Source: a virus. Taken from it: a DNA stretch of 64,000 nt. The first letter of the stretch is position 1. Every line of letters starts with the position of its first letter. A program made the position numbers and the translations under genes. Below are positions 4,372 to 56,002 of this stretch, piece after piece. The stretch spans positions 44,943 through 108,942 of IMG/VR virus record IMGVR_UViG_3300020439_000004; one strand, 5' to 3'. A model generated the notes under the pieces. The model worked only from the letters and a program-made list of their open reading frames with translations, had not been told where the DNA came from and did no database searches.

Positions 4372-4398
4372 AGCCTCGCCTTCGGGCGGGGCTTTTTT
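4372..4398 (+). terminator. Rho-independent terminator
   Basis: AGCCTCGCC-TTCG-GGCGGGGCT followed by a T run. Confidence 0.9.
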
Positions 4399-4400
4399 AT

Positions 4401-4406
4401 GTGTAA
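4401..4406 (+). promoter_or_regulatory. GTGTAA putative late promoter element
   Basis: Right after the terminator, 8 nt before ATG. Confidence 0.7.
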
Positions 4407-4414
4407 TATACAGT

Positions 4415-12704: not shown

Positions 12705-12709
12705 TTAAA

Positions 12710-14251
12710 ATGGCATCAATAATAGCAAACAATATAATAAGTTCCTCTTCCAATATTTCATATCAGTATAATGAAACGGAAGAAGTGTTTGGATATGTTA
12801 TATCCGCGACTTATAATTTAAATGTTGCTGATGTCGCTTTTGAAAATGGTGATGGTTTTTTAATTGCAGGTAGAGAGGCTGTAAGAGCAGCATACGCAAA
12901 GCCAGAAATTGTAGCTAGGATAGGTGGAGATGAATTTTTAAAAGGTCAAATTCAAAGTGTCTCTTTCTCAGATGGAACTTTAGTTGGTTCTGAAACTGCA
13001 AACATAACTATTCAAGAATCTAGAAGATTAGATGACTACTCTTCTACAAACTTTTGCAAATATATTCCCAATCCGCATTTAGTAAGTTCTTTTGCTGAGA
13101 CTTATAATTTTACTAGATCAGAGGATACATATAGCTATTCAAGAGATATAAATTTAACATACAAGCAAGGAGCTGGAGATAGGTTCTTAAATGACGCTAG
13201 AATTTTCCTTACTCAATATTATTTTGCTAACAGGCCATCATTCGGATTCCAATCAGATGGTATATCTGAAGACGCTACATTTAATAAAGACTACAGGGGT
13301 TTACTCACAGAGAAATACGACCTCATAGGTCTGACAGTTGGATTAACAGAAAATTTTAATTCTTCTTTTATAGATAATACTAATCATATTTCTAGAAAAG
13401 AAACCCAAACAACAACAGTTGATGAAAAGGGTTATCTTAAAAAGACATTTGCTTTTGAATTAACGTCACTAAGATTTGATTCGCAGAACATATTGCAAGA
13501 GGCTATGAAGACAATCATAGCTGAAGTCATGACAGCTCAAGGGTCAACTCTTGGAGATCCTTCATCAATATCTAAGGGTATTAAAAAAGATGGCAACTCT
13601 GCATCTTTAAGTATTAGTTTTTCTACAAACCCCACAGAAAGACAAGGCGACTTAGTAACCTACTCTGTTGAAGAGAGAAAAAATCAAAAATTTAAAGACT
13701 ATATATTATCCGCGACCTACAAGGCTAAAGGTAAAACCGATAGAGAAAAATTTAATAAAGCTAAAACTTTATGGATTTCAGACAAAGATAATAATATAAC
13801 TAAAGTACAAAGTGTATTTGCTGGATTGCCCACAATATTTGAGAAAGATAGAAACTCTAACTTTCAAAAGACTGAAGGGATTATAACAGAAACTATAACT
13901 TTTACAGACGACCCAGCTTATAAAAATCAATCAGATGGGTTACTTAAATTAAAGATAACATCTTCTAACACAAAAAAGATAAGAAGAAATGAATTGGTTT
14001 ATGATCTTGGAGATTTAAAAGAGAAGCTTGTTGTGAGTGATTTAGAAAGTGTAGGTCAAGCATCAGTAACTGCTACAACGACTATAGATCCAAATAGAGA
14101 TTTATTTGGAGGGAAAGATAAATTACTCAATAAGACTTCTGATATGCAAGAGTTTGTTACAGGCTCAAAAGTTTTTACCACTTCAGATGTTGTAAATGTA
14201 AACTTAGGAGAAGGAACCTCGACTAGAACAATAAATTATTTATATATTTAA
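12710..14251 (+). CDS. tail tip protein (distal-tail-like)
   Basis: Follows the tape measure; beta-rich. Confidence 0.55.
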   Translation: MASIIANNIISSSSNISYQYNETEEVFGYVISATYNLNVADVAFENGDGFLIAGREAVRAAYAKPEIVARIGGDEFLKGQIQSVSFSDGTLVGSETANITIQESRRLDDYSSTNFCKYIPNPHLVSSFAETYNFTRSEDTYSYSRDINLTYKQGAGDRFLNDARIFLTQYYFANRPSFGFQSDGISEDATFNKDYRGLLTEKYDLIGLTVGLTENFNSSFIDNTNHISRKETQTTTVDEKGYLKKTFAFELTSLRFDSQNILQEAMKTIIAEVMTAQGSTLGDPSSISKGIKKDGNSASLSISFSTNPTERQGDLVTYSVEERKNQKFKDYILSATYKAKGKTDREKFNKAKTLWISDKDNNITKVQSVFAGLPTIFEKDRNSNFQKTEGIITETITFTDDPAYKNQSDGLLKLKITSSNTKKIRRNELVYDLGDLKEKLVVSDLESVGQASVTATTTIDPNRDLFGGKDKLLNKTSDMQEFVTGSKVFTTSDVVNVNLGEGTSTRTINYLYI

Positions 14252-20750: not shown

Positions 20751-21527
20751 TCAACCTTGAGCTTTTCTAATAAGAGCTATAAGTATTCTGCACTCTTTGG
20801 CGGGAACATCATTAAAGCTGTTCCAGTCTTTTATGTCTTCATTCTTGTAGGTTTCACTCTTCCACAAAGTTCTTAGATAATTTTTAAAGTCATCAAAGTC
20901 AGTGATATTTAAAACTTCTGCTAAAGTTTTTTGTAATGTTCCAGTAGGTGTGATTGCAAAAATTTGAGAAGCTTGTCCTGATTTCTTTTGTATTGGGGTC
21001 TTGTTTTCAGATTTATCTATCTCATCTGCTCCAACAATATGAACGCCTAGATAATTTCTAACGCATCTTACAAAAGCTCTATTGCAAGCAATAGTTTCTA
21101 GGAATTTAGCGCAGAAAGAATCCGTGTTATCTAAGGTTGCATTTGCTGTATCTGAGTAAATTACAGAATATTCAGAGACAGACTCATAGTTATTACACCA
21201 AGTTATAGTACATTTAGCTACAACATATTCTTCTGTAACATTAGTTACATCAAAGTTGACTGATGTATATCCTCTGAGTTTTGCTAATTCCTTTATACCT
21301 CCTAGCATTACTAAGAGTTGATTATCTTTCAATCCTTCAGTGCTAGTAGGAACATCCATTTTCCTAGCCTCAAACCAATCTTTATTAGCATAAAGATATT
21401 CAGGCTTGATCATAGCCCGCCAATTTACAGATCCATCATCATTAAACTTGTAATCTACATTTTCTAATAAACCATGAATATCCCTCTTGTAGATATCGGG
21501 ACCGTAAATCTTCTTTTTAGTCATCAA
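20751..21527 (-). CDS. ssDNA-annealing protein (Rad52/Sak-like)
   Basis: GGIKELAKLRG, VVAKCTITW, ETIACNRAFVRCVRNYLG. Confidence 0.55.
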   Translation of the reverse strand: MMTKKKIYGPDIYKRDIHGLLENVDYKFNDDGSVNWRAMIKPEYLYANKDWFEARKMDVPTSTEGLKDNQLLVMLGGIKELAKLRGYTSVNFDVTNVTEEYVVAKCTITWCNNYESVSEYSVIYSDTANATLDNTDSFCAKFLETIACNRAFVRCVRNYLGVHIVGADEIDKSENKTPIQKKSGQASQIFAITPTGTLQKTLAEVLNITDFDDFKNYLRTLWKSETYKNEDIKDWNSFNDVPAKECRILIALIRKAQG

Positions 21528-22641
21528 CGGTATTATAAATCATAAGCCAATCTAAGTCAACAAATAAATCATTCTCATTTTTTCTTTCATTCCTATCATA
21601 ATGACTTTCATAAATATTATTGCCGCAAATAATCTTTTTTCTGCTTTTTATTTTTAATGAATTTAAATTAACTCCTTCTAGTAATTTTTTATTGGTTTTT
21701 ATGATTTCGGGTTTTTTATTTTGATGTATGAGATAATCAAAGAATTTTACTCTTTCTTTATCTATGTTTTTACTGTCTGTACATACTAGGGTTGTTTCTA
21801 GCCCAGATTTCTTAAGAAGATCTACAAAGTCTTTATCAAAAGAATCAGCTTCATAGGTAATCCTCTGTATTCTTTTTGACATTAATATGCTAGCATCTAT
21901 TGGATTTTTTGTTGTAACTTCTGCGGGAGTAAATTGTAGAATTTTGCTTAGTGCATCCTCATTGTGAGCCAAGTCCATTCTTATTGAAACAGGGCCGCCT
22001 TGAAAATTAGTTGGCTGTGATGGAACAACTTCAATACAATTAAATATTGATCTTGGCCCCATATAAATAGTTTCTTCTTTTATATTTTTATCTATCTCTA
22101 AAACATCAAGAACTGCTTGAGCTATTTTTTCTGGTTTGATTAAATTAATTGTTTTTGGGTTTTCTTCTAAAGCAAAAGATGGCCTTCTACCATCTCTATC
22201 GGATTCTATTGTTATAGCTTTACTTTTTTTATTCCACAAAGGGTCGCAAGTATTTGCATAAGTGTGTGAGTATATCCCAACAACAGGCTTATCAAAAGCA
22301 GAAGCTAGGTGAACTGGAACGCTATCAATCCCTACATGACCTAGTGATTTTTGAATAATGTAGCTACTTTGTTTTAAAGAAAAAGTTGGAATATGTCTGT
22401 CTACACCTTCTATAGTTTCTTCTCCAAAAGCTCCTATTTGTATTATTTTTATATCTCCTAGATGCGGCTTTAATAGTTCAATAACTTCTGGCCAAAAATT
22501 ATATTCTTTAGCTTGAACTTTTTTGTCATTGTGGATTGTAATGTATTTATCAAAGGGTACAGGAAAGAAGTGAGGCTTTATTACAGGCTTTCCTATTCTA
22601 ACTCCGCAAGATTTTGCATATTCTTCTGCTAAATGACTCAT
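21517..22641 (-). CDS. GT9 (heptosyltransferase-like) C-terminal lobe plus an extra domain
   Basis: YITIH..K.Y..W, QIG, HVGIDSVPVHLASAFDKPVVGIY. Confidence 0.8.
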   Translation of the reverse strand: MSHLAEEYAKSCGVRIGKPVIKPHFFPVPFDKYITIHNDKKVQAKEYNFWPEVIELLKPHLGDIKIIQIGAFGEETIEGVDRHIPTFSLKQSSYIIQKSLGHVGIDSVPVHLASAFDKPVVGIYSHTYANTCDPLWNKKSKAITIESDRDGRRPSFALEENPKTINLIKPEKIAQAVLDVLEIDKNIKEETIYMGPRSIFNCIEVVPSQPTNFQGGPVSIRMDLAHNEDALSKILQFTPAEVTTKNPIDASILMSKRIQRITYEADSFDKDFVDLLKKSGLETTLVCTDSKNIDKERVKFFDYLIHQNKKPEIIKTNKKLLEGVNLNSLKIKSRKKIICGNNIYESHYDRNERKNENDLFVDLDWLMIYNTVDD

Positions 22642-31216: not shown

Positions 31217-31288
31217 TCAGGGATTAAGCTCCTTGAGGTCATAGTATGCCTCTGGGTCAAATAATTTTTGGCTCAGAGGTTTATGATT
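31217..31288 (+). promoter_or_regulatory. structured 5' leader, two hairpins, start codon paired
   Basis: TCAGGGA/TCCTTGA; GCCTCTGGGTCAAA/TTTGGCTCAGAGGT extended by GGTCATAG/TTATGATT. Confidence 0.55.
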
Positions 31289-31894
31289 ACTTTTGCTATA
31301 ACTGTCGCAGATGAACTTTTTGAATTTAAAAGGCTTATAAATTCTTTACAGCCTTACGTTTATCCACAAGAAGAGATTGTTGTACTTGCAGATAAAAATA
31401 AAGTTACAAAAGAAATAGAGGAACATTGTGATTTATGTGGATTAAAAATTAATTTTTTTAATTTTCAAAATGACTTTTCTGAGTTTAAGAACGAGCTTTT
31501 TAATCTATCTACAAAGGATTATCTATTCCAAATTGATGCTGACGAACAAATACCCCCATCTCTTATACATATATTAAGACAAGTAGCCTCTCAAAAGAAA
31601 GTTGATTTGCTTTGGATTCCTAGAATTAATATAGTTCAAGGCGCTACTGAAGAAGATATAAAAAATTTCAACTGGAACATAAATGAGCTGGGATGGGAGG
31701 GCTTTCCAGATTTTCAATCTAGGTTTGTTTCAACTAAAGGTGATATCAGATGGAAGAATAAAGTACATGAAATTTTAACTGGCGCTAAAAATCAAGCTAG
31801 GATAGAAGAAAAACCAATAGAACTTTATTCTATTCTTCATGTGAAGCATATAGATAAACAAAAGAAACAAAATAATTATTATGACACAATCTAA
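31283..31894 (+). CDS. GT2-family glycosyltransferase
   Basis: DFSEFKN, FQIDADE, VHE motifs. Confidence 0.85.
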   Translation: MITFAITVADELFEFKRLINSLQPYVYPQEEIVVLADKNKVTKEIEEHCDLCGLKINFFNFQNDFSEFKNELFNLSTKDYLFQIDADEQIPPSLIHILRQVASQKKVDLLWIPRINIVQGATEEDIKNFNWNINELGWEGFPDFQSRFVSTKGDIRWKNKVHEILTGAKNQARIEEKPIELYSILHVKHIDKQKKQNNYYDTI

Positions 31895-32699
31895 GATTTT
31901 AGTAAGGGCGGAAGGAGGATTAGGTGATTGTTTATTAGCAAATAGGTTTATACCTGCCATAAGAGAGAAGCATCCAAACTCTGAAGTCACCTTTGCGTTA
32001 GATAACGATAGAGGTGAAACATTTCAGTTAGATGTTCTTTACCATTTCTACAAAAGAATGAGTGATACTTACTCTTTTTTTGCTGATCATAATCCTGATG
32101 ACTTTGATTATTTTTATGATCTACATATAGATAAAATGCTTTGGACTACTTATGACTTTGATTGGTTAAGTAGATTTTATTATTTTCCAAAACCAAAAGT
32201 AAAAATAGAAAAGCAAGATTATGTTTGTTTGCATTTAACTCATAATAAATGGCCTCCTAAAAATTTGCCTAAATATTATTTAGATCAAGTAGTCAAATCA
32301 ATTAAACAGGTGGCCCCTTCGGTAAAAGCTATATGCACTGAATCTGAAATAGGTTCTTACTGCAATATTCTTACTGAGGATGAGATAGTTTGTGGAGATA
32401 TAGTTACGGCTTGTGAAACTGTTGCTGGCGCAAAGGCATTTGTAACAATAGACTCAGGATTTAAATATATAGCTTATGCGTATGGTGTCCCAACAATAGA
32501 AACAGCAGACTACTATACAGATGTAGGGCAAATTCACCCAATGATAAAAGCTAGGTGGTTGCCATTTAATGAAAGAGGATTGCCTTTATTATGTAATGTT
32601 GATTTTTTTAAAGTGGCTCTATATAATATCTTCAATAATAAAATTTCTACAATTTTTCCATTCTTTAGCAAAAACGAAAATATTTTTAAACTATCATGA
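31881..32699 (+). CDS. GT9-like glycosyltransferase
   Basis: GGLGDCLL..IREKHP; FVTIDSGFKYIAYAYGVP. Confidence 0.75.
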   Translation: MTQSKILVRAEGGLGDCLLANRFIPAIREKHPNSEVTFALDNDRGETFQLDVLYHFYKRMSDTYSFFADHNPDDFDYFYDLHIDKMLWTTYDFDWLSRFYYFPKPKVKIEKQDYVCLHLTHNKWPPKNLPKYYLDQVVKSIKQVAPSVKAICTESEIGSYCNILTEDEIVCGDIVTACETVAGAKAFVTIDSGFKYIAYAYGVPTIETADYYTDVGQIHPMIKARWLPFNERGLPLLCNVDFFKVALYNIFNNKISTIFPFFSKNENIFKLS

Positions 32700-33382
32700 C
32701 AGAGTCACAAAACTTAAAACTCCAGCAAATTGAAATGAATATAGGAGGAGTCGGAATTAGCTGCTTTGACTTTCCAACAAGTATGACTCCCTATGGAACA
32801 AAAGAAGTGATATTGGGAAATAAATTTAAATTTGATGAAGTGGATATAGGAGAAGGTGACAATTATGTTGAAGTAGGCGCTCATAATGGACTGTTGGCTT
32901 TTTATGTAGCTAGAATTTTTCCTAAAGCGAATATACATATTTTTGAGTGTAACCCTGTTATGGTTACAGCAATCAACTATGGTATTGCAGTAAACGGGTT
33001 TAGTAATATCAGATGTTATCCATTTGGTTTAAGCAACTATAATGGAAATTGTGATTTTGGTGTCAACTTGGAGAATACAGGAGGGTCAAGTATGCTTATA
33101 CATGATGGGCATCATGTAAAAAATCAGAAAGTTAAAGTTTTAGATTTTGAAACCGTGCTATCAACTTTTGATAATATTAAATATTTAAAAATAGACATTG
33201 AAGGAGAGGAATTTAAAATATTTAGTAGTTTAATTTCTAAAGATTCTAAATTTTTTGATAGAGTTTCTACATTAAATTTAGAATTACATGATGAGATATA
33301 TCCAGATCTAAATTTAGACAGAAAAGGTATAAAAGAATATCTATCAACATATGATGATTTAAATATTATATATCAAGATTGA
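32696..33382 (+). CDS. FkbM-family methyltransferase
   Basis: EVGAHNG, FECNP, LKIDIEGEE. Confidence 0.88.
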   Translation: MTESQNLKLQQIEMNIGGVGISCFDFPTSMTPYGTKEVILGNKFKFDEVDIGEGDNYVEVGAHNGLLAFYVARIFPKANIHIFECNPVMVTAINYGIAVNGFSNIRCYPFGLSNYNGNCDFGVNLENTGGSSMLIHDGHHVKNQKVKVLDFETVLSTFDNIKYLKIDIEGEEFKIFSSLISKDSKFFDRVSTLNLELHDEIYPDLNLDRKGIKEYLSTYDDLNIIYQD

Positions 33383-34449
33383 TGAAAAAAGTAATAGTTA
33401 CAGGTGTTACAGGCCAAGATGGTAGTAATATGGTTGATTATCTCTTGAGAGAGACTGATCACATTATAATTGGCGGAGTAAGAAGACTTAGTGTTAAAAA
33501 TCATCAGAATATTGAACACTTAGAAAATGAAGATAGATTTTTCTTAATTGACTTAGATGTAACTGATGCTCAAAACACTGATGAGGTAATAGCTGAACAT
33601 AAGCCAGATTATTTTATTAATTTTGCCGCTAATTCTTTTGTTGGAACAAGTTGGAAAATGCCAACTCAACACATGGAGACAAATGCTTTAGCTGTACTAC
33701 ATCAACTTGAAGCTATAAAAAGACATTGCCCTGATTGTAGATATTATAATGCAGGATCTTCTGAAGAGTTTGGAGATGTAATCTGCACACCTCAAAGTGA
33801 ACTGCATCCATTAAGACCTCGTAGTCCATATGGAGCTTCTAAATGTTCAGCTAGACATTTAGTAAAAGTTTACAGAGACTCTTATGACCTATACGCTGTT
33901 CAAGGTTGGCTTTTCAATCACGAAGGAACAAGGAGGGGTGAAGAATTTGTGACTCGAAAAATAACTAAAAATGTCGCTCGCATTTCTTTTGAGTACTCTA
34001 AAGAAAAAACCTTTAAACCTTTAGTTCTTGGAAATGTTGATTCAAAGCGAGATTGGAGTGATTCTGAAGATTTTATGGATGGTATATGGAGAATGTTAAA
34101 TCAAGATGATTTTGATTCTTATATAGACAACAATTATAAACCAAAGGAATATGTGCTTTCTTCTGATGAAACTCACACAATAAGAGAGTTCGTTGAAGAG
34201 GCTTTTCATATAGCTGGCTTTCATAGATCCATGTGTCGCTGGGAAGGCAAAGGAGTGCATGAAAAATATTATCATGGAGATGATCTACTAGTAGAAATTA
34301 GTGATAAATTTTACAGACCTGCTGAAGTTGACTTGCTTTATGGTGATTCTTCTAGAGCGAGAAAAGATTTAGAATGGCAGCCTAAAACAGATTTTACAGG
34401 TTTAGTGACTAAAATGGTAAAATATGATTTAGAGCTTGCAAAATCTTAA
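33379..34449 (+). CDS. gmd: GDP-mannose 4,6-dehydratase
   Basis: GVTGQDG, SSEEFG, SPYGASK, FNHE, FVTRKIT, RPAEVDLL. Confidence 0.93.
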   Translation: MMKKVIVTGVTGQDGSNMVDYLLRETDHIIIGGVRRLSVKNHQNIEHLENEDRFFLIDLDVTDAQNTDEVIAEHKPDYFINFAANSFVGTSWKMPTQHMETNALAVLHQLEAIKRHCPDCRYYNAGSSEEFGDVICTPQSELHPLRPRSPYGASKCSARHLVKVYRDSYDLYAVQGWLFNHEGTRRGEEFVTRKITKNVARISFEYSKEKTFKPLVLGNVDSKRDWSDSEDFMDGIWRMLNQDDFDSYIDNNYKPKEYVLSSDETHTIREFVEEAFHIAGFHRSMCRWEGKGVHEKYYHGDDLLVEISDKFYRPAEVDLLYGDSSRARKDLEWQPKTDFTGLVTKMVKYDLELAKS

Positions 34450-41009: not shown

Positions 41010-41610
41010 TCAAAAATATTTAGTTGTAGACACTGAGACTGAAGGTCTTAATTTACATTCTTCTAAAGCTTGGCAACTCTCTTGGATTGTTTGTCAAGGC
41101 AATAAAATTTTAGAAGAACATGACGAGTTTATAGCACATAAAAATTTAAACATCCCAGAGGTTGTTAAAAAAATGACTGGATTTAATTGGGATAAGTATA
41201 ATCAAAAATCTAAATCTCTTTCGAAGGTTTGGTCTAAATTTGAAAGCTATTTATATGACCCAAAATATATTATAGTAGGTCAAAATTTATTGGGGTTTGA
41301 TGTTTATATGTTGGCTCTTTTACAAAAAATGTTAGGTCAACAACCTGACTACTCTTATTTACCTAGAATTTATGACACAAGAGCTTTGGCTAAAGCATAT
41401 AGAGAAAACCTTGATAAACCAAAAGATAATTTCCTAAGTTGGCAGTATAAAATCATTAACAATAGAAGCTTGAAAGCTAAAGTGTCTCAAGGCACTTTAT
41501 TAAAATTCTTTGACATTGACCACGATGAGTCTAAATTACATGACGCTCTTTATGACATAAAAAAATGTTTTGAAGTCTTTTGTGAGTTAAAAAGAAGAAT
41601 GGATTTATGA
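40996..41610 (+). CDS. dnaQ: DEDDh 3'-5' exonuclease (epsilon-like)
   Basis: DTETEG, QN..FD, HDALYD. Confidence 0.85.
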   Translation: MLPYNQKYLVVDTETEGLNLHSSKAWQLSWIVCQGNKILEEHDEFIAHKNLNIPEVVKKMTGFNWDKYNQKSKSLSKVWSKFESYLYDPKYIIVGQNLLGFDVYMLALLQKMLGQQPDYSYLPRIYDTRALAKAYRENLDKPKDNFLSWQYKIINNRSLKAKVSQGTLLKFFDIDHDESKLHDALYDIKKCFEVFCELKRRMDL

Positions 41611-44189
41611 TTTTTGATGACTGTACCATATACGATGACTGTGAACCAGCAGGAGTAGAGCTTCCAAAGACCATTGTTAAATCGAGCAAACTCAAAGAAA
41701 TAGGCTTAAATGCTGATAGCTCGACAAAAGAGATTTTATACGAACTTGCTCGAAAGGGTTTAAGAGAAAAGGGTATTACTAAGTATAAAAATAAAGATGT
41801 TTACTTTGAAAGAACTAAACAGGAATTAGAAACATTTGAAGAGTTAGGATTCACTGATTATATATTACTTAACTGGGATGTTTTAAATTTTTGCCACGAT
41901 AATAAAATACCGACTGGAGCGGGTCGAGGTTCTGCGGCAGGTTCCCTTGTATTATACTTACTAGGAGTAACTAATATTGACCCTATTCCTAATAGTTTAT
42001 TTTTTGAGAGATTTGTATCAAAATCTAGAGCTAAAAAAGTTACAGATAAAAAGGGTAAAGAATTTCTTGTGGGTAGTCTTTTGCCTGATGTTGACTCTGA
42101 TATTTCATATGACCAAAGACATAAAGTTATATCTTATATAGAAAAACAACACGAAGGAAGGACAGCTAAAATATTAACATTTAATACTTTTAGTTCAAAA
42201 CTTTGCATTAAAGAGGCGGCAAAATATTTTGATGAGGCTTCTGAGGAACGGGCGATGAGGATTTCAGATTCTATACCTAAACTTCATGGACAGGTCTTGC
42301 CTCTTGAAACTGCTTTTGTAGAAAGTGATAAATTTAGAGAGTGGGCGAGAGAGCATCATCATACTTATAAAAATGCGCTGAAGGTACAAGGATTACCGAA
42401 AAATACTGGGGTTCATCCCTCTGGTATTGCAATTTGTTCTCAAAAAATATCAGATGTAGTTCCTCTTCAAAAAACTAAAGATGGAGATCTTGTCACTGGC
42501 TACAATATGGATGATGTCGCAGACCTGATGGTTAAGTTTGATATCTTGGGATTGAGAACTTTAACAATCGCTCATAAATGCTGTGAAAAAGTTAATATAG
42601 ATATAGATGACATTGACCCTAATGATGATTTTATATATGAAAAGCTTCAAGATTTTAAACATCCAGCAGGTTTGTTTCAAATTTCTGCTGAGACAAACTA
42701 TAGAGTTTGCAAGGATGTAAAGCCTGAAAATTTAACAGAGTTATCTGACGTTATAGCTTTAGCTAGACCTGCGGCATTAGAGCATGTGCAGACATATATA
42801 CAGCAAAAAAGAGCTTTAACTGAGCTAAACTTACATCCAGAGCTAGATAAGATTCTTTCATGGTCTAAAAACGTAATCTTATTTCAAGAGCAGATTATGC
42901 AAATAGCTAATAAAGTTTTTGGGTTTACTTTAGAAGAAGCGGAAACGCTTAGAAGAATAGTTGGAAAGAAAAAAGTTGATCAAATGCCTCAATGGCGACA
43001 AAAGATTTTTGATGCCGCAGAAGAAAAAGGTTTAGATGAAAGAGTAGCAGAGTTTTATTGGGTGTCACTAGAAGCTTCTGCACACTATTCTTTTAATAAA
43101 TCTCATAGCTTTGCTTATGCTGATTTGGCAGCTAAAACTATCTACCTTAAATATAAATATCCGCAAGAATTCTTTTTGTCTATACTAGAGTGTTCTGAAT
43201 TTGAGCCAGATCCATTAGAAACCATTAGCTTAGTTAGCCAAGAATTAAAATCATTTAAAATAGATTTATTGCCACCATGTTTATATAAATCAGACTTTGA
43301 TTTTAAAATAGAAGGCAGAAATATTAGATATGGGTTGAAATCTATAAAAGGTGTTTCAGATAAAAACTTAAAAAGCTTAATTGATTTTAGAGGTTTTCAA
43401 TTTAATGACCGATATGAAATCTTTGTTGCCGCTAAAGAATGTGGTATTCCTATAAATGTTTTGTCTTCTTTGATACAAGCAGGATTAATGGACAATACGT
43501 CTGAGGACAATCCTATTTCAAGAAGCAAATTAGTTTTGCAAGCTCAGTCTTTTAATCTTTTAACTGACAGAGAAAAAAGAAACTTTTCTAGATTAGCGCC
43601 AAGATTGGGATTCAACATATTAAAAGCCATACAACAGGCTTTATTTAATAAAATTCTAGCTGATGACGGAAAAATATTAATAAAGGAAAGTAGATTCAAT
43701 ACCTTTCGCTCTAAATATGACAGGTATAGAGATATTTATTATAAAAATAAAGACCATGAAAAATTTGCGTCTTGGACTTTTGAGAATAGCCTTTTAGGGT
43801 TTTCATATTCATACGACTTAAAACAATGTTTTGAGGATGATGACGATGTAGATAATTTACATTACTTGTCTGACATTGAAGATTTAGGAGACAGAACAAG
43901 GTTTTGTTCTATATGTTTAGTAAAGGACTTCTTCACAAAGGAATCTCAAGCTGGCAATAAATATATGATCATGACTTTATCTGATAATACAGCCACAAAG
44001 AATATGATGTTTATAGATGGCAGAGATAATGAGAAGTTTAGTGACTTTATGAGTTCAAATAAACTAAAGAAAAATGACGTAGTCCACTTGACTGCGAGTA
44101 AATCCAATAATACTATTTTCATTGACGAATTAAAAATAAAAGGCCCAGAGATATACATGTATAAGAGGCAAGTTAAAAAGAAAAAATAG
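41607..44189 (+). CDS. dnaE: DNA polymerase III alpha catalytic core, lacking PHP
   Basis: GRGSAAGSLV, FERF, PDVDSD, HPSG, KFDILGL, FNKSH. Confidence 0.93.
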   Translation: MIFDDCTIYDDCEPAGVELPKTIVKSSKLKEIGLNADSSTKEILYELARKGLREKGITKYKNKDVYFERTKQELETFEELGFTDYILLNWDVLNFCHDNKIPTGAGRGSAAGSLVLYLLGVTNIDPIPNSLFFERFVSKSRAKKVTDKKGKEFLVGSLLPDVDSDISYDQRHKVISYIEKQHEGRTAKILTFNTFSSKLCIKEAAKYFDEASEERAMRISDSIPKLHGQVLPLETAFVESDKFREWAREHHHTYKNALKVQGLPKNTGVHPSGIAICSQKISDVVPLQKTKDGDLVTGYNMDDVADLMVKFDILGLRTLTIAHKCCEKVNIDIDDIDPNDDFIYEKLQDFKHPAGLFQISAETNYRVCKDVKPENLTELSDVIALARPAALEHVQTYIQQKRALTELNLHPELDKILSWSKNVILFQEQIMQIANKVFGFTLEEAETLRRIVGKKKVDQMPQWRQKIFDAAEEKGLDERVAEFYWVSLEASAHYSFNKSHSFAYADLAAKTIYLKYKYPQEFFLSILECSEFEPDPLETISLVSQELKSFKIDLLPPCLYKSDFDFKIEGRNIRYGLKSIKGVSDKNLKSLIDFRGFQFNDRYEIFVAAKECGIPINVLSSLIQAGLMDNTSEDNPISRSKLVLQAQSFNLLTDREKRNFSRLAPRLGFNILKAIQQALFNKILADDGKILIKESRFNTFRSKYDRYRDIYYKNKDHEKFASWTFENSLLGFSYSYDLKQCFEDDDDVDNLHYLSDIEDLGDRTRFCSICLVKDFFTKESQAGNKYMIMTLSDNTATKNMMFIDGRDNEKFSDFMSSNKLKKNDVVHLTASKSNNTIFIDELKIKGPEIYMYKRQVKKKK

Positions 44190-46511
44190 ATGGTTCAATT
44201 ACCCTTTACTCCACATATAGAAGGTGTTCTTCAGAAGTCTAAAGATTTATCTGTAATCTTAGAAAGAAACGGCGTTGATTTAGATATATTGTTTCACTGT
44301 TTTATTAGTGACTTGAGTTTATCTTGCATTTCTATATTTAAGAAAATTGGAGTGGATGGAGGTGAACTGATAAAAGACTCAAGAAATATTTTACATAAAA
44401 AGAGAAAAAACAAAAATATATCTGATAAGTTCAAAACAGATGCTAGAAAGTTTTTAAAGTTTTGCGAGAAGCTTTGTAAAGACACTTACTCTTTGGATTA
44501 TATTCCGCCAGAGGTAATGTTGATGAATTTTTTTGATGAACAATTCACCCCTAAAGTTCTAAAAGAGTCTTTTCCAGAAGGAGTAGAAGCTGCTGATAGC
44601 GTAAGGTTTGGCATAGTTGCAGAATGTGCTTTAGTTATAAAAGACTTTGAAGCAGAAAAGATAGAATCAAGACTAAAAGAGCTTGAGGAGACTCCTGACA
44701 ACTGGATAGACATGTTTGACAATAATGAAATATTGTCTCAGTTTGCAGAGAATCTTAATGCAAAAGCGGCGGCTGGTGAATTTGATAAGATTGTAGACTA
44801 TGATGGGAAGATTGATGAGCTTGCAACTATTTTGTGTCGCAAAAAGAAACCAAATGCGATATTGGTTGGCCCTGCTGGCACTGGCAAAACTTCATTAGTA
44901 GAAGGGTTAGCAACAAAAATAGCAGCAGGAGATGCTCCAGAGCTTATAGCTAATAAAGTAATTTATTCTGTTAGTTTATCTAGCATGGTTGCTGGTACTG
45001 AGTACAGAGGTCAATTTGAAAAGCGGCTAGAAGATTTTGTAAATGAAGCTAAAAAATATACAAACTTAATTTTATTTATAGATGAGATACACACTTTGAT
45101 TGGAGCAGGGGGAGCTAATAACAATTCTCTTGAAGCTTCTAATATTCTAAAGCCAGAATTGGCTAGAGGAACAATAAGTTGTATCGGTGCTACAACTATA
45201 AATGAGTATACAAACACAATAAAGAAAGATACTGCTCTTGATAGAAGATTTGAAAGGGTTGTAGTAAAAGAGCCTTCTAAGTTTCAGATGGAGGAGATTT
45301 TACCTACTATTGTTTCTTATTATGAAACATTTCATGGTGTGGAATATAGCGATGAATTTTTAAATAACATCATAAAATATTGTGAAAAATATACTCCAAA
45401 TAAATATTACCCAGATAAAGCTATTGATGTTATAGATCATTGTGGCGCTCAAGCAAAAGTTACATATTGGGATGTAAAACCATCTATCAAAGAAATGCAG
45501 ACAGAGATAGTTGAATCTGCACTTCATCCAGAAAAAGATCATTCTGCTTTAATAGAGAAGCTTAATAAAAGTTTGGAAAAATGGGTTGAGTCTGATGAAA
45601 CTGCAAATAAACCAGAGGTAACCCGTTTTCACTTAAAAGAATTTTTTGATAGAAAGGTCAATCCTTTAAATAAAAAAAATAAAATAAATAAAGTGTTTGA
45701 TTGTTTTTCTAAATCTTTTGTAGGTCAAGCAGATATCCTAGAAGAGTTAAAACATGAAATTATTTTAAGTAGTATTGGTGTTAGAACTACTAGAAAATTT
45801 TCTACTCCAGAATGTTACGTTATCAGCGGTGAAGAATCTAGTGGTAAATCGCTGTTTTGTGAGCTATTAGAAGACTCTCTACAAAAGCATGGAGTAAATG
45901 TTTTATCTTATAATGGTATTCATTTTTCAGATAATTTTTCTCCACATAAAATTGCATCCTCCCAAGGTAACAACACTTCAATATGCGAAAAGATTGTTAT
46001 AACTCCTAATAGTGTTTTAATTATAGATGACTTTCATAAGATAGATAAAACTGCTGTACCTATTTTTAATCAGATACTTAAAGAGGGTAAGATTCAGATG
46101 AATAATGGAGATGTTGCAGATTTTTCAAATTGTAAAATCTTTTTAACAAGCTGCTTATCTCACACTAGTCAACTTGGCTTCAATATAGAAAGATCCCGCA
46201 ATGATGACCCCCTCATACATAAAGATATTTATTCTTTGGTTAAGAACTCTTTTATTTTAAATGAATTAAAAACAAAAGATTTGCGTAGAATTTTATGGAA
46301 CAAACTTAGAAACATAAAGGCTAATTTAGAAGACAATGGGGTCTATTTAGATTTTACTGTTAAATATATTTCTAATAATGTAGAAAAGATAAAAGATGAA
46401 GCGTCTCCGATTAAAAGCTTGAATGAATTAGTAGCATCAAAGATTAAGCCATTCATCTCTGAATGTATCTCTAATGGTAATGATAAAATAAAACTTTTTG
46501 TTGAAAAATAA
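44190..46511 (+). CDS. ClpA/ClpC-like Hsp100 ATPase
   Basis: GPAGTGKT, YRGQFE, FIDEIH, ALDRRF, PDKAID; degenerate NBD2; LGF loop. Confidence 0.88.
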   Translation: MVQLPFTPHIEGVLQKSKDLSVILERNGVDLDILFHCFISDLSLSCISIFKKIGVDGGELIKDSRNILHKKRKNKNISDKFKTDARKFLKFCEKLCKDTYSLDYIPPEVMLMNFFDEQFTPKVLKESFPEGVEAADSVRFGIVAECALVIKDFEAEKIESRLKELEETPDNWIDMFDNNEILSQFAENLNAKAAAGEFDKIVDYDGKIDELATILCRKKKPNAILVGPAGTGKTSLVEGLATKIAAGDAPELIANKVIYSVSLSSMVAGTEYRGQFEKRLEDFVNEAKKYTNLILFIDEIHTLIGAGGANNNSLEASNILKPELARGTISCIGATTINEYTNTIKKDTALDRRFERVVVKEPSKFQMEEILPTIVSYYETFHGVEYSDEFLNNIIKYCEKYTPNKYYPDKAIDVIDHCGAQAKVTYWDVKPSIKEMQTEIVESALHPEKDHSALIEKLNKSLEKWVESDETANKPEVTRFHLKEFFDRKVNPLNKKNKINKVFDCFSKSFVGQADILEELKHEIILSSIGVRTTRKFSTPECYVISGEESSGKSLFCELLEDSLQKHGVNVLSYNGIHFSDNFSPHKIASSQGNNTSICEKIVITPNSVLIIDDFHKIDKTAVPIFNQILKEGKIQMNNGDVADFSNCKIFLTSCLSHTSQLGFNIERSRNDDPLIHKDIYSLVKNSFILNELKTKDLRRILWNKLRNIKANLEDNGVYLDFTVKYISNNVEKIKDEASPIKSLNELVASKIKPFISECISNGNDKIKLFVEK

Positions 46512-47153: not shown

Positions 47154-47630
47154 ATGCCTTATACTCTTTCTTTTTTAGATCAAAAATTATATACCAGTTT
47201 ATCTTTTGATGCTGATATAAAATTTCCTGAGTCCAGTGACTTTGTTAAGAGGTTTTGGATTTTGAAGGAATATAAAAAAGTAAGTTCAGATTTGGAGCTT
47301 TCAGAGTCTAAAGATTCTGACAAACAAATGACAAGCTCTTCTTCTTATGAGATACACAAAAGGTTTCAAGGCGATGAACTTATCGTTGAGATAGTTCAAA
47401 GCCTTGCTTTTTGTGAAGAATTTGATTATTTTAGCAAGGCAGATTTTGATTTGCCTACAGGAGATGAAGAATTAGATAAAATGCTTACCGATATAAAAGA
47501 TTCTGATTTTGATGAATCAGTTATAAAAGCTTGTATCTTAGATAGTGTGCTTCAAGGCAACTATCCTCAAAATCCTGATGACGAACCAAAAGAGGAAGAA
47601 GAAGAGTCCTCTGAGGAACCAAGTGAATAG
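47154..47630 (+). CDS. hypothetical acidic protein
   Basis: Start moved to ATG 47154, 10 nt after GTGTAA (47138). Confidence 0.6.
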   Translation: MPYTLSFLDQKLYTSLSFDADIKFPESSDFVKRFWILKEYKKVSSDLELSESKDSDKQMTSSSSYEIHKRFQGDELIVEIVQSLAFCEEFDYFSKADFDLPTGDEELDKMLTDIKDSDFDESVIKACILDSVLQGNYPQNPDDEPKEEEEESSEEPSE

Positions 47631-48459
47631 AGTTTTAATAACTGGAGCTGGCGGTTTTATAGGAGGTAACTTAGCCGCATATTTAGAAGCTTGTGGCTTT
47701 CAAGTTACAAGATTTGATATATCTTTAGGTAACACTGGTTATCCAGATATTTTTAATCAAGATTTTGTTATTCATCTTGGTGCAAATTCAAGCACTACAG
47801 AAACCGATCTAAAAAAAATATTAGATCAAAACTTTGAATACTCGGCCAACCTTTACAAGATGTGCGAGGCTTATGAGATAAAGTTTCAATATGCTAGTAG
47901 CGCATCTGTTTATGGCGCATCTAAAACTTTCAAAGAAGATGAGTTTTGTAAACCATTAAGTCCTTATGCTTTTAGCAAGTATATGTTTGACTGTTGGTTA
48001 ATGAATCAAGAATATCCATACCAAGGTTTTAGATATTTTAATGTGTACGGTTTGGGTGAAGATAAAAAAGGAAAGCAAGCTAGTCCTGTTTCAAAATTTA
48101 TAAAAGAAGCGCAGACAGGCGGTAAGATAAAAATCTTTGAGAAAAGCGAAAAATATAAAAGAGATTTTGTTTCTGTAGATGATGTGTGTGAAATGCACTA
48201 CAAGCTTTTGGCAAATGACGCTTCAGGAATATTTAACATAGGTACAGGTGAGCCTATCTCTTTCAGAGATGTAGCAGAGATAATAAAAGAAAATTCTAAC
48301 TCTGAGATAGAAGAAATACCAATGCCCAAAGAGCTAAAAGGGCAGTATCAAAAATTTACAAAAGCTGATATATCAAAGCTAAATGAAATAATTGGTGATT
48401 ATGAGTGGAAAAGTGTAAGTGAATATGTAGAAGAAAACATTGATGCTTTCCTTAATTAA
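47623..48459 (+). CDS. hldD: ADP-L-glycero-D-manno-heptose 6-epimerase
   Basis: ITGAGGFIG, HLGANSSTTE, YASSASVYG, YAFSK, FRYFNVYG, RDFV; GTG start. Confidence 0.88.
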   Translation: MNRVLITGAGGFIGGNLAAYLEACGFQVTRFDISLGNTGYPDIFNQDFVIHLGANSSTTETDLKKILDQNFEYSANLYKMCEAYEIKFQYASSASVYGASKTFKEDEFCKPLSPYAFSKYMFDCWLMNQEYPYQGFRYFNVYGLGEDKKGKQASPVSKFIKEAQTGGKIKIFEKSEKYKRDFVSVDDVCEMHYKLLANDASGIFNIGTGEPISFRDVAEIIKENSNSEIEEIPMPKELKGQYQKFTKADISKLNEIIGDYEWKSVSEYVEENIDAFLN

Positions 48460-52287: not shown

Positions 52288-52908
52288 ATGAATTTTAAAG
52301 GTAAAAAAGAAGTAGTTAAAGCTGTACAAAAACTATTGGGCGTTTCTGCTGATGGGGCTGATGGTCCTGTAACTTGGAATGCTATTTTAGCAAAGTTATC
52401 CACAAAGAATGCTCCAGTGCCAGATGGTGATATACCTCAAAAAATGGTTTCATTAGCTAGAGAAGAAATAGGAGTTTCTGAAGTTGATGGGAGTAACTGC
52501 GGGCCAAGGGTGGATGAATACAAAGCGGCTACTTGGCTTGATCCAGATAAAGGTTGGCCATGGTGTGCTGCTTTTATTTGTTGGCTAGTCAGAGAGGCAA
52601 TTGAAGGTGAGGATGTAAAGTTTAAAAGACCAAGAACTGCTGGTGCTTGGGATTTTGAGAATTGGGCTAAACAGCAAGTTTCAAATGGTATAGATCTTCG
52701 CAAACCAACAAATGGAAACATTAAAGCTGGAGATATAGTTGTATTTACTTTTTCTCATATAGGTATAGCTGTCAAAGATATAGACTCAAGTGGTTATGTA
52801 GTAACTATAGAGGGAAATACAAATGGCGCTGGAAGCAGAGAAGGTGGATCTGTCTTAGAGAAGAAGCGCCATGTTTCTAAAATAAGAAGCAGAATAAGAA
52901 TTCTTTAA
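52288..52908 (+). CDS. endolysin: peptidoglycan-binding domain plus CHAP
   Basis: VKAVQKLLG..ADGADGPVTW; PWCAAF, HIGI, IEGNT. Confidence 0.9.
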   Translation: MNFKGKKEVVKAVQKLLGVSADGADGPVTWNAILAKLSTKNAPVPDGDIPQKMVSLAREEIGVSEVDGSNCGPRVDEYKAATWLDPDKGWPWCAAFICWLVREAIEGEDVKFKRPRTAGAWDFENWAKQQVSNGIDLRKPTNGNIKAGDIVVFTFSHIGIAVKDIDSSGYVVTIEGNTNGAGSREGGSVLEKKRHVSKIRSRIRIL

Positions 52909-53490: not shown

Positions 53491-53518
53491 TTGAATAATC
53501 TTTGTGATAGGCTATAAT
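53491..53518 (+). promoter_or_regulatory. sigma70-type promoter of the heptose operon, leaderless
   Basis: TTGAAT-16-TATAAT with ATG 7 nt downstream. Confidence 0.7.
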
Positions 53519-53525
53519 ACTCTTA

Positions 53526-53900
53526 ATGAGTATGCAGCCTATTTTTAGCCGATTAGAAGTTCACCCCAAGGGTTGGGGAGAAGAGCTTTGGATTACCAAC
53601 AATTATAAATATTGTGGTAAAATTTTACGTTTTAAACAGGGGTCTTCCTTCTCAATGCATTATCACATTCAGAAGGAAGAAACTTGGTGTGTCACTAGAG
53701 GTAAACTAAAGTTAGAATATTTTAATTTAGAGACTTCTGAACGCCTTGAAAAAGAATTAGTAGAAGGCGACACTGTTCATTTAAAACCTTGCATCCCGCA
53801 CAAGTTGACAGCATTAGAAGATTCAGATGTCTTTGAAGTCAGCACTCAACATTTCAATGAGGACTCTTATAGAGTAGAAAAAGGCTCATCGCAGAAATGA
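53526..53900 (+). CDS. cupin sugar-phosphate isomerase (type II PMI-like)
   Basis: KGWG.E, SMHYH..KEETW, PH, EVST. Confidence 0.75.
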   Translation: MSMQPIFSRLEVHPKGWGEELWITNNYKYCGKILRFKQGSSFSMHYHIQKEETWCVTRGKLKLEYFNLETSERLEKELVEGDTVHLKPCIPHKLTALEDSDVFEVSTQHFNEDSYRVEKGSSQK

Positions 53901-54643
53901 AGTTTTTAGTTATAGGTGAAACTTGCAAAGACGAGTTTTGCTATGGCAAAGCTAATCGTTTGTGTCCAGAAGCTCCTGTTCCTGTATTTATACCAGATCA
54001 TAATACAAGCAACTTAGGTATGGCGGCTAATGTTTATGAAAATATGCGGGCTATAGATAACGAGACTCATAAAGATATACCTTTTAAAAATGACATAGCA
54101 TTAAGTACTAATTACTGCGTTGGTTCTAAAACTAGATATATTGACATAGAATCAAATCAAATGTTTTTAAGGGTTGATACAGATAAGTATGAACCTTGTG
54201 ACAAACTGCCAGAAAACATAGAATCATTTGATGCTGTTATTGTTTCAGATTATAACAAAGGATATTTAACAGACTCGCAGTTAAGAGAGATTGCGAGTAG
54301 AAGCAAATTAAGTTTTTTAGATACTAAAAAACAATACAATCAAGAATGGGCTAATTTGTTTACTTTTATTAAGATAAACGATAAAGAGTACAAGGAGAAT
54401 GGTTGGACACATCAAGGAGAGAATTTAATAATCACAAAAGGTTCAAAGGGTTGTTGGTACAATAATAAAGATTATAAACTTAGCAAACCTTCAGAAGTTA
54501 GAGATGTTTCAGGCGCAGGAGATACATTTTTAGCTGCATTTGCTTATTCATATACAGCCACCAAAGATGTTGAATGCTCAATAATATATGCCCAAGATTG
54601 TTGTCAAAGAGTAATTAAAAAGAAAGGTGTTGCTACAATATGA
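53897..54643 (+). CDS. hldA: heptose-7-phosphate kinase (HldE kinase domain)
   Basis: RLCPEAPVPV, GMAANV, KTRY, SDYNKG, DVSGAGDT. Confidence 0.88.
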   Translation: MKFLVIGETCKDEFCYGKANRLCPEAPVPVFIPDHNTSNLGMAANVYENMRAIDNETHKDIPFKNDIALSTNYCVGSKTRYIDIESNQMFLRVDTDKYEPCDKLPENIESFDAVIVSDYNKGYLTDSQLREIASRSKLSFLDTKKQYNQEWANLFTFIKINDKEYKENGWTHQGENLIITKGSKGCWYNNKDYKLSKPSEVRDVSGAGDTFLAAFAYSYTATKDVECSIIYAQDCCQRVIKKKGVATI

Positions 54644-55134
54644 AACATAAAAAAATAATGTCTTTTGACGAGATTAAACAAGAGAGACTTTTTGCAAAGC
54701 AATTAGAAGATGCTGGTATAAAAAAGTTTTTTATATTTACTAATGGATGTTTTGATTTATTTCATGCTGGACATGCTAGCTTACTCAATGCTATGAAAAA
54801 TGCCTGTAGCTTAAATTCAAAGTTGGTTGTTGGCATAAATGGAGATGCGAGCGTTAAATCCATAAAAGGTAAGGATAGACCGATAATACCAGCAAAACAA
54901 AGAGCTTATACAGTAGCCTGTCATGAAGCTGTTGATTATGTTTTTATTTTCAATACTAAAACTGTATCAAAACAACTAAAAGAACTTCAGCCAGATTTTT
55001 GGTGCAAAGGCGGCGATTATGATGAAGATTCTTTAAATAAATCAGAGCTAAAAGCAAAAGGCAATGCTATATTAAAAGTTATACCATTTATAGAAAACAT
55101 AAGCACTAGTGATATTATTAAAAAAATAAAATGA
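54640..55134 (+). CDS. hldC: heptose-1-phosphate nucleotidyltransferase (HldE domain II)
   Basis: FTNGCFDLFHAGH, INGDASV..KG..RP, KGGDY, STS.II. Confidence 0.9.
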   Translation: MKHKKIMSFDEIKQERLFAKQLEDAGIKKFFIFTNGCFDLFHAGHASLLNAMKNACSLNSKLVVGINGDASVKSIKGKDRPIIPAKQRAYTVACHEAVDYVFIFNTKTVSKQLKELQPDFWCKGGDYDEDSLNKSELKAKGNAILKVIPFIENISTSDIIKKIK

Positions 55135-55469
55135 AATATATTGTAGACATTGATGGCACAATTTGCACACATGACAGTCCAGATACCCCTTATGAGCAAG
55201 CAAGGCCAATAAAAGATAGAATACATTTTTTTAATCAATTATTTGATGCTGGTCATGAAATAGTTTATTGGACTGCTAGAGGGGGAAATAGCGGTAAAGA
55301 TCATTCAGCTTTAACTAAAAAACAGCTTGATGAATGGGGTGTTAAAAGAACAAAACTAATGATGGGGAAACCTCCATATGATTATTGGATTGATGATAAA
55401 GCTTATAATGTAAAAGATTTTTTTATGACTGATACAACAACAGGAAAAACAGAAACAATTACATTATGA
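55131..55469 (+). CDS. capless HAD phosphatase
   Basis: DIDGT, WTARG, GKP, IDDKA. Confidence 0.8.
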   Translation: MKYIVDIDGTICTHDSPDTPYEQARPIKDRIHFFNQLFDAGHEIVYWTARGGNSGKDHSALTKKQLDEWGVKRTKLMMGKPPYDYWIDDKAYNVKDFFMTDTTTGKTETITL

Positions 55470-56002
55470 TATCTAATAAAGCTAAAAGCTTATCTTCAGC
55501 AGGTCACATAACTCAGTCTTTTAAAGCGGGTACGGAGGGTCAGCAAAGGTTCTATGACTCTTGTAGAGCTTTAAATAAAGATATAAAGAAAACCTCAAAA
55601 GCTGATGATATTGGTAATCACACGGACTTTGTTGTAGATGGTCAGACTTTTGATGTTAAAGGTTTAAAAAAGACGCAAAAAGAGGGCAAAATTATACTAG
55701 AGATAAAAAATGTCCAAGGTAAAATGGGCTGGTGCAATCACGAGCTAAAACCTGAGTGGATAGCTTTTGATTTTGGTGCGTTTTTCCTTTGTGTTCGAAA
55801 TACTCATCTGAGAGAGTTAGCAGAAAATAAATGCGATTGGACTGATGAAGTGTCTAAAATCAATAATGCTTTATATAAAGGTTATACTAGAAAAGATAGG
55901 AAAGATTTAATGACAGTTGTAACACTTTTTGATGTTTTAAATACATGCGAGCATTGGTTTTTACCTTATCAGGAATATCGTTCCCCAATGGAGCTTTTGT
56001 AG
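55466..56002 (+). CDS. PD-(D/E)XK-like nuclease
   Basis: D..HTDF..TFDVKG..LEIKNV.G..GW. Confidence 0.55.
   Translation: MISNKAKSLSSAGHITQSFKAGTEGQQRFYDSCRALNKDIKKTSKADDIGNHTDFVVDGQTFDVKGLKKTQKEGKIILEIKNVQGKMGWCNHELKPEWIAFDFGAFFLCVRNTHLRELAENKCDWTDEVSKINNALYKGYTRKDRKDLMTVVTLFDVLNTCEHWFLPYQEYRSPMELL

Follow-up and report, generated by a model that had tools for sequence, protein, structure and literature searches.

A cupin and a 112-residue HAD as candidate replacements for GmhA and GmhB in a predicted ADP-heptose route of an uncultured marine phage

Can a phage make an activated heptose without GmhA, the isomerase of the first step, and without GmhB, the phosphatase? The nucleoside diphosphate (NDP)-heptose pathway itself is textbook. 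The question is raised by an operon in IMG/VR virus record IMGVR_UViG_3300020439_000004, a contig of 108,942 bp; the DNA analyzed here, called the window below, is its right-hand 64 kb. Four consecutive open reading frames (ORFs) at 53526-55469 of the window encode a cupin, a PfkB-family kinase, a HIGH-type nucleotidyltransferase (NT) and a small HAD phosphatase that we call the mini-HAD. We propose that this uncultured marine phage carries an ADP-heptose route in which the cupin would replace GmhA and the mini-HAD would replace GmhB, a reading drawn from sequence to which we give a probability of roughly two in three.

The heptose operon and its two unexpected members

An earlier note on this DNA had reported that the window contains neither a SIS-fold GmhA nor a canonical GmhB, and had called for a search of the rest of the genome. 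Does the absence extend beyond the window? The whole 108,942-bp contig contains no SIS or SIS_2 domain, no GmhA-like sequence and no GmhB-like sequence, the last by searches that included tblastn with E. coli GmhB. CheckV places the contig at 79% completeness, leaving about one-fifth of the genome unseen.

The ORF calls agree with the note that the four genes are joined by ATGA overlaps, which occur at all three junctions. Three of the predicted enzymes resemble those expected of the pathway. The two best NCBIfam matches of the kinase are HldE-type models, led by TIGR02198 (rfaE_dom_I; 110.2 bits, E 1e-31) and followed by a second at 70.8 bits, with ribokinase next at 37.5; the protein also matches Pfam PfkB (56.5 bits) and has the GAGD catalytic motif, and its N terminus is shorter than that of HldE. 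The NT likewise has two HldE-type models at the top, TIGR02199 (rfaE_dom_II) at 134.3 bits and another at 118.9, the next other family reaching 44. It matches Pfam CTP_transf_like (60.6 bits), and its motifs include HAGH and ISTS; its (F/L)xxGxSTT motif has Ile, not Arg, as fifth residue (motif rule: PMC11573728). The SDR, which the note had identified as HldD at 47623, does start with a GTG at that position, and it matches the HldD models TIGR02197 (heptose_epim, 233.9 bits) and NF008360 (193.4 bits) far ahead of GalE at 71; its GAGGFIG and Y-x3-K motifs are both present. These three proteins thus appear to be divergent relatives of HldE domain I, HldE domain II and HldD. All of them score under the NCBIfam equivalog cut-offs (345, 181.5 and 274.6 bits, respectively), and hence the exact substrates assigned to them are predictions.

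In the proposed route, the cupin would hold a divalent metal through H45, H47, E52 and H92 and would isomerise sedoheptulose-7-phosphate to heptose-7-phosphate. The invariant K50 would stabilise the intermediate, and an S/T/H/R block, invariant and C-terminal, would bind the 7-phosphate. The PfkB kinase would then phosphorylate O1, the mini-HAD would take off the 7-phosphate, the HIGH-type NT would add AMP and the HldD-like SDR, encoded 6 kb upstream, would epimerise C6. A heptosyltransferase of glycosyltransferase family 9 (GT9), encoded elsewhere in the window, would use the product. We infer the substrate of each enzyme, the product and the product's target.

Table 1. Predicted features of the heptose locus and its surroundings, in window coordinates
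Feature	Position	Strand	Length and remarks
Cupin	53526..53900	+	124 aa; proposed sedoheptulose-7-phosphate isomerase, non-orthologous to GmhA
PfkB-family kinase, HldA / HldE domain I-like (heptose-7-phosphate 1-kinase)	53897..54643	+	248 aa
HIGH-type nucleotidyltransferase, HldC / HldE domain II-like (heptose-1-phosphate adenylyltransferase)	54640..55134	+	164 aa
Mini-HAD, capless HAD phosphatase of AfhF / 1xpj / EcbF-BcbF type	55131..55469	+	112 aa; proposed heptose-1,7-bisphosphate 7-phosphatase
ORF without significant family match	55466..56002	+	178 aa; a fourth ATGA overlap couples it to the HAD
SDR, HldD-like ADP-glycero-manno-heptose 6-epimerase	47623..48459	+	278 aa; GTG start overlaps the upstream stop
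Promoter-like site TTGAAT-16-TATAAT	53491..53518	+	10/12 consensus matches; 7 nt before the cupin ATG
GT9 (heptosyltransferase) domain protein	21517..22641	-	374 aa; Glyco_transf_9 32.8 bits, cut-off 22

Cupin or GmhA at the isomerase step

Do the cupin and GmhA exclude each other in phage hld clusters, a check that the earlier note had proposed? We drew two sets of 80 viral loci, one centred on HldC-like NT genes and the other on GmhA genes, with flanks of at most 10 kb, and scored them by tblastn and with hidden Markov models built for this analysis. The cupin was present in 51 of the 80 NT-centred loci and GmhA in 2-3, never both. Sixteen GmhA-centred loci had a kinase or an NT, and no cupin was found in these 16. 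Seventy viral loci carried kinase and NT together: 46 had the cupin only, 10 had GmhA only, none had both and 14 had neither (Fisher p 5e-6 for exclusivity, a value that overstates independence since the loci are related). Clustering of the NTs at 70% identity still left 34 clusters with the cupin only and 11 with GmhA only. At 50% identity one cluster contained both kinds, indicating a change of isomerase type inside a single pathway lineage. In addition, no SIS_2 domain was found in 13 long viral records that carry the cupin, among them one of 93% completeness.

Is the pattern confined to viruses? A scan of cellular genomes, one per prokaryote species, returned 80 cupin loci from Patescibacteria (candidate phyla radiation, CPR), DPANN and other archaea, Planctomycetota, Binatia and deltaproteobacterial metagenome-assembled genomes (MAGs), and we scored 10-kb flanks around each. 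GmhA was within 10 kb in none of the 80; the kinase was found in 22, the NT in 20, canonical GmhB in 12 and the mini-HAD in 5. Kinase and NT were both present in 18 loci, half of which (9) also had canonical GmhB. The order cupin-kinase-GmhB-NT was seen in 7 of the 12 GmhB-bearing loci (L064 at 10001-13194; also L031, L056, L067 and L068), and in some of these HldD follows the NT, so that gene order is the order of the biochemical steps. In two deltaproteobacterial MAGs (L028 and L010), an HldE-type gene lies about 11 kb from the cupin, apparently on the same contig; hence a 10-kb flank undercounts linkage.

Whole-genome searches found no full-length SIS_2 protein in the CPR genomes, or in most of the DPANN genomes, that have such operons; their SIS_2 matches were only C-terminal and partial, inside ORFs mostly of about 440-670 aa. 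The closed Planctomycetales chromosome CP060262.1 encodes the cupin and an HldC above cut-off (182.9 bits), with no SIS_2 match at E 1e-3. The same isomerase swap thus appears to recur in many ocean phages, CPR bacteria and archaea.

A profile search of 1.84 billion cluster representatives recovered 6,219 cupin relatives at E <=1e-3, of which 157 were at <=1e-30. Among the best 150 relatives, the cupin was fused to each of the three other route enzymes: there were five mini-HAD-cupin proteins, three NT-cupin or cupin-NT proteins and one PfkB-cupin protein, and no cupin fused to a SIS domain. These fusions parallel the isomerase/kinase/nucleotidyltransferase tridomain enzymes of the canonical pathway (Tang et al., PMC11573728), and the cupin adjoins or is fused with the heptose kinase and NT as GmhA is in those enzymes. 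The earlier note had suggested that the cupin is a non-orthologous sedoheptulose-7-phosphate isomerase; the exclusivity, the GmhA-free genomes, the cellular operons in which the cupin takes the GmhA slot next to canonical GmhB and the fusions, comparative genomics throughout, all argue for it. The computational checks that the note had called for all gave results in its favor.

Could a protein of this kind catalyze an aldose-ketose isomerisation? The protein belongs to the cupin superfamily (Cupin_2, PF07883, 28.3 bits; cut-off 27.2), and its AlphaFold2 model is an all-beta cupin with a mean predicted local distance difference test score (pLDDT) of 93.8. Cupin motif 1 fits exactly at residues 39-59 (G39-x5-H45-x-H47-x4-E52-x6-G59), and motif 2 contributes H92, within PHK at 91-93. 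In the family alignment H45, H47, E52 and H92 are invariant, which makes the canonical 3His/1Glu metal site, and so is K50, two residues ahead of E52. The family also has invariant blocks of its own, KGWGxExW at the N terminus and STQHxxxDSYR at the C terminus (S106, T107, H109, D113, S114, Y115 and R116), which presumably hold the sugar phosphate. We infer the identity of the metal and the roles of individual residues. An H-x-H...K-x-E pattern is present. In the Thermofilum lyxose isomerase TsLI, E88 is the proposed base and K86 stabilises the cis-enediol (PMC8378251), and K50/E52 of the phage cupin have the same K-x-E arrangement.

The likeness to the cupin-type aldose-ketose isomerases (7nzo, 2y0o, 3kmh, 7zvy, 7zvm and 1j3p) extends to the whole monocupin fold (Z 12.4-14.4) and to a 3His/1Glu motif in which a Lys stands two positions ahead of the Glu. 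The individual matches include a 112-aa Thermococcus phosphomannose isomerase (7zvy, Z 14.4), the D-lyxose isomerases 7nzo (Z 13.6) and 3kmh (Z 12.4) and phosphoglucose isomerase 1j3p (Z 12.6). Aldoses of manno configuration are the products of the lyxose/mannose and phosphomannose enzymes, whereas the cupin phosphoglucose isomerase yields the gluco configuration. The phage cupin differs from all of these in its own invariant blocks, in a proposed substrate that is a heptulose phosphate and in sequence, identity being only 16-25%. Family searches gave a match to Lyx_isomer (PF07385) at 22.0 bits against a cut-off of 20.8, over profile positions 84-134 of 222 only; a score of 16.9 bits with the D-lyxose/D-mannose isomerase model NF051472, whose cut-off is 350; and 18.6 bits with the type II phosphomannose isomerase domain (MannoseP_isomer, PF01050), below its cut-off of 23.6, which a few relatives of the cupin pass (P0250, 37.3 bits; P0255, 24.9; P0130, 24.8). 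Searches of PDB sequences with the single sequence or the profile recovered generic cupins alone, oxalate decarboxylase and quercetinase among them, and were functionally uninformative, and the viral cupin clusters of the ESM Atlas carry automatic names only.

The protein has no match to SIS families in Pfam or NCBIfam and is not a member of the GmhA family (SIS_2, PF13580; EC 5.3.1.28). It shares with GmhA the proposed reaction and the first position in the NDP-heptose pathway, and differs from it in fold (a 124-aa double-stranded beta-helix versus an alpha/beta SIS domain of about 190 aa), in its His/His/Glu/His metal site and in showing no sequence similarity. The cupin would be at most a functional counterpart of GmhA.

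Perhaps the cupin acts later, as a tailoring enzyme? It might be an epimerase or keto-isomerase working on ADP-heptose or a heptose phosphate, like the cupins of CapF, WbuC or RmlC type, with heptose-7-phosphate coming from host GmhA or an unrecognised isomerase. The best fold match is indeed the cupin domain of CapF (Z 15.2; E 3e-8), which acts on a UDP-keto-sugar and not on a sugar phosphate. There is also a weak match to the WbuC family (TIGR04366), GmhA does occur elsewhere in some cupin-bearing genomes, and Campylobacter heptose modification involves cupin C3/C5 epimerases (PMC7949155). The fold search, however, cannot separate cupin functions: the CapF score is within 1 to 1.6 Z units of those of more than 10 unrelated cupins, and the matches at Z 12-15 span enzymes, seed proteins and CENP-C. 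The WbuC score, 23.5 bits, is far under the cut-off of 42, there is no RmlC or FdtA family match, and the cassette has no conserved 4-dehydrogenase partner. Moreover, the fusion partners include early-step enzymes, kinase and phosphatase. A tailoring role would leave unexplained why cupin and GmhA never share a heptose locus, and where heptose-7-phosphate comes from in the SIS_2-free CPR genomes and in the SIS_2-free closed Planctomycetales genome with HldC. We consider such a role improbable.

The mini-HAD at the phosphatase step

If the cupin supplies heptose-7-phosphate, what would remove the 7-phosphate after the kinase has acted? The mini-HAD has HAD motifs I-IV in the form D6-x-D8-G-T10 (DIDGT), T48, K80 (GKP) and D88-D89, kept across 26 homologues, and its model (pLDDT 81.9) has a core of alternating strands and helices; it is a member of the HAD superfamily. 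The best fold match is 9iqw, AfhF of phage HY126 (Foldseek E 2e-5, 28-29% identity), and the family profile matches 9iqw end to end (E 9.7e-23, 83.7 bits). The same profile matches 1xpj, which is also among the best fold matches, end to end at E 4.8e-14. The single sequence scores 20.2 bits with TIGR01689, for which the NCBIfam cut-off is 162. The mini-HAD thus belongs to the AfhF / 1xpj / EcbF-BcbF family, which includes the capsule phosphatases EcbF and BcbF, as a divergent relative and not as an equivalog.

AfhF of this E. coli phage is reported to be a Mg-dependent phosphatase. Ahead of nucleotidyl transfer it takes the terminal phosphate off a sugar 1,omega-bisphosphate, turning D-arabinose-1,5-bisphosphate into arabinose-1-phosphate (PMC13326640). 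This is the step proposed for the mini-HAD, one sugar class removed. The two proteins are homologous over their full length, and AfhF, about 120 aa long, is also phage encoded and part of a phage NDP-sugar pathway (PMC13326640). They differ in their partners: AfhF is paired with an arabinose-5-phosphate isomerase of SIS type and a bifunctional kinase/uridylyltransferase of unrelated kind in a pathway whose product goes onto DNA cytosine (PMC13326640), whereas the mini-HAD is accompanied by HldE/HldD-type enzymes and a GT9 protein.

By sequence the mini-HAD is not a member of the GmhB family. GmhB is absent among the matches of the mini-HAD family profile, no GmhB-type NCBIfam model is matched by the mini-HAD, and Foldseek matches to GmhB-type structures are weak (E 0.03-0.07; 3l8h at 0.03, 2gmw at 0.055). 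The mini-HAD shares with GmhB motifs I-IV, the capless architecture, the proposed reaction and the operon slot, and differs from it in length (112 versus about 190 aa) and in the absence of a detectable sequence match. In the 70 viral kinase-and-NT loci, the mini-HAD was present in 24, GmhB in 12 and both in none. At two loci the mini-HAD keeps company with GmhA, directly adjoining it in L230 and lying about 1 kb from it in L241. The suggestion in the earlier note that the 112-aa HAD is a heptose-1,7-bisphosphate phosphatase is thus strengthened, through comparative genomics, by the homology to AfhF and the exclusivity with GmhB.

Does the cassette make a heptose at all? Its product may not be ADP-L,D-manno-heptose, and the cupin may be a ketose-phosphate isomerase with another substrate or another outcome at C2, giving a gluco-configured heptose or, from a hexose or pentose phosphate, products resembling ADP-mannose or an arabinose derivative. 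All three HldE/HldD-like enzymes fall under equivalog cut-offs, the kinase falls about 60 residues short of the length of HldE domain I, and AfhF, the characterised relative of the mini-HAD, acts on an arabinose bisphosphate. Yet rfaE_dom_I, rfaE_dom_II and heptose_epim are by far the top-scoring families; a C6 epimerase is sensible only on a heptose; canonical GmhB takes the place of the mini-HAD in operons that are alike in other respects; the window encodes a GT9 heptosyltransferase domain; and in the arabinose pathway the isomerase is of SIS type and the kinase and NT come from unrelated families. A different product is, in our judgment, marginally less probable than a tailoring cupin. We also considered that the cassette might be an arabinose/DNA-modification pathway like that of AfhF and judged this unlikely, given the unrelated kinase and NT families and the SIS isomerase of that pathway (PMC13326640) and the HldE/HldD-type enzymes and GT9 protein of this phage.

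Several observations weigh against the heptose route with its two replacements. The argument for the function of the cupin rests on gene context. The fold search is generic for cupins, with the CapF domain on top, and the Lyx_isomer and MannoseP_isomer matches are partial and marginal. The contig is 79% complete, so the absence of gmhA and gmhB covers about four-fifths of the genome. Kinase, NT and epimerase are all below equivalog level. The viral loci compared are kin to one another; within the DNA covered, 14 of the 70 with kinase and NT have neither isomerase and 34 have neither phosphatase. Only one viral locus, L239 (IMGVR_UViG_3300005690_000045, 3152-5766), has both: 1.4 kb separates a divergent cupin (60 bits) there from an ORF resembling GmhA (93 bits), and neither a kinase nor an NT was detected in the vicinity. 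Most cellular cupin loci, namely those of Planctomycetota, Binatia and deltaproteobacteria, have no heptose gene within 10 kb. Finally, three cupin-bearing MAGs, two deltaproteobacterial and one of Methanosarcinales, have clear GmhA-like genes (127-162 bits) at other sites, and we therefore rejected the idea that cupin and GmhA never share a genome. Since two heptose pathways often coexist in bacteria, these three genomes limit the isomerase reading and do not refute it.

Neighboring genes, cyanophage relatives and significance

Where does the heptose transcription unit begin and end? The earlier note had described a four-gene operon driven by one promoter. A consensus site does lie 7 nt before the cupin gene and would, on sequence grounds, give a near-leaderless transcript; promoter-like sites in the region are not above shuffles (11 observed versus 15.4 expected), and TTGAAT-16-TATAAT is thus a consensus match only. 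The four ORFs are as described, and the note had omitted the further ATGA-coupled ORF of 178 aa. This ORF has no significant Pfam, NCBIfam or PHROG match and, among the loci compared, is present only in the two nearest relatives (L085 and L086). We rejected it as a sixth pathway gene on these two grounds; it is in the same transcription unit as the HAD and outside the conserved cassette. Directly upstream of the heptose operon, a 206-aa CHAP-domain protein (52288-52908, + strand; 33.9 bits) is probably the endolysin.

Which enzyme would use the heptose? The 374-aa GT9 protein, whose match covers profile positions 170-227 only (the C-lobe), is a likely consumer of ADP-heptose. Its gene overlaps a 573-aa ORF at 22638-24359 (- strand) that has no Pfam match. 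There is a small chance that the cupin route goes beyond a one-for-one replacement: the cupin may yield a heptose-7-phosphate of a different C2 configuration or take other ketose phosphates, or GT9-type transferases of the phage may heptosylate virion proteins or DNA and not host lipopolysaccharide (LPS). In both cases the phage would have a glycan system specific to phages, with two unrecognised classes of enzyme at its core.

A second sugar operon at 31268-34449 (+ strand) encodes a protein with a weak match to glycosyltransferase family 2 (22.6 bits, cut-off 23.3), an unassigned 272-aa ORF, an FkbM-type methyltransferase and GDP-mannose 4,6-dehydratase (Gmd; 33379-34449, + strand, 321 bits). 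The clear Gmd indicates that the phage also makes or modifies a 6-deoxyhexose. The cupin might be a phosphomannose isomerase feeding mannose-6-phosphate to this Gmd branch, its place in the heptose operon being accidental. The presence of Gmd, weak phosphomannose isomerase matches (MannoseP_isomer 18.6 bits, GMP_PMI 14.8 bits) and the good fold match to the archaeal enzyme 7zvy speak for this reading. Judged from gene linkage it is very improbable: gmd is 20 kb off in another operon, cupin gene neighborhoods give no support, and in hundreds of loci and in fusions the cupin is linked to kinase, NT, HAD and HldD, not to gmd.

Is the cassette known from cultured phages? In a protein search the cupin was found in 35 phage records, from T4-like cyanophages and marine single-cell viruses. 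The same five-gene cassette is present in the T4-like cyanophages P-SSM2 (PSSM2_309-313, equivalent to T4-GC 304-308), S-CAM1 and S-SM2, and no SIS_2 domain was found in the complete genomes of these three cyanomyoviruses. In P-SSM2 (record AY939844.2), genes 309-313 are labeled NT, kinase, "phosphoheptose isomerase", "putative nucleotidyltransferase" and epimerase. The 114-aa "phosphoheptose isomerase" (PSSM2_311) has no SIS domain and is a homologue of the mini-HAD (48% identity), and the "putative nucleotidyltransferase" (gene 312; "cysteine dioxygenase" in RefSeq) is the cupin (42% identity). The same misnomers occur in PHROG 1238, where the HAD is called "phosphoheptose isomerase", and in PHROG 7851. 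Iyer et al. (2021) had noted that cyanophage sugar clusters hold cupin-fold sugar isomerases, PfkB kinases, HIGH nucleotidyltransferases and HAD phosphatases, and left the heptose isomerase step unassigned (PMC7824862).

The phage studied here has the same five proteins as the T4-GC 304-308 clusters in a different gene order, with hldD 6 kb away. Unlike the cyanomyoviruses it is not T4-like and has a DnaE-type polymerase and no close cultured relative; the best matches of the polymerase in phage records reach 26-31% identity, too little to point to a close relative or a host. The polymerase is followed, within 41607-46511 (+ strand), by a 773-aa protein that matches a PHROG named ATP-dependent protease and, more weakly, clamp-loader families. 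A DNA-level search of phage records gave a single 80-nt match, in S-SM2.

How much of this is new? Our literature search, of incomplete coverage, found no paper that links a cupin to sedoheptulose-7-phosphate isomerase activity, and both non-orthologous replacements are absent from the literature searched, save for the generic remark on cupin isomerases by Iyer et al. (PMC7824862).

What would the replacements mean? ADP-heptose is the precursor of the LPS core and the ligand of the innate immune receptor ALPK1, and GmhA has been pursued as an antibiotic-adjuvant target. If the cupin does perform the step of GmhA, then surveys based on GmhA and GmhB undercount heptose producers in groups that include ocean phages, CPR bacteria, DPANN archaea and Planctomycetota. 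Cupin and SIS proteins would then have converged on one reaction once more, after phosphoglucose isomerase (PMC8378251). As for the phosphatase, a commentary states that Tang et al. did not find it in viruses in their survey (PMC11461863), a gap that the mini-HAD family would fill. Gene names that have long been wrong in model cyanophage genomes and in PHROGs would also be corrected.

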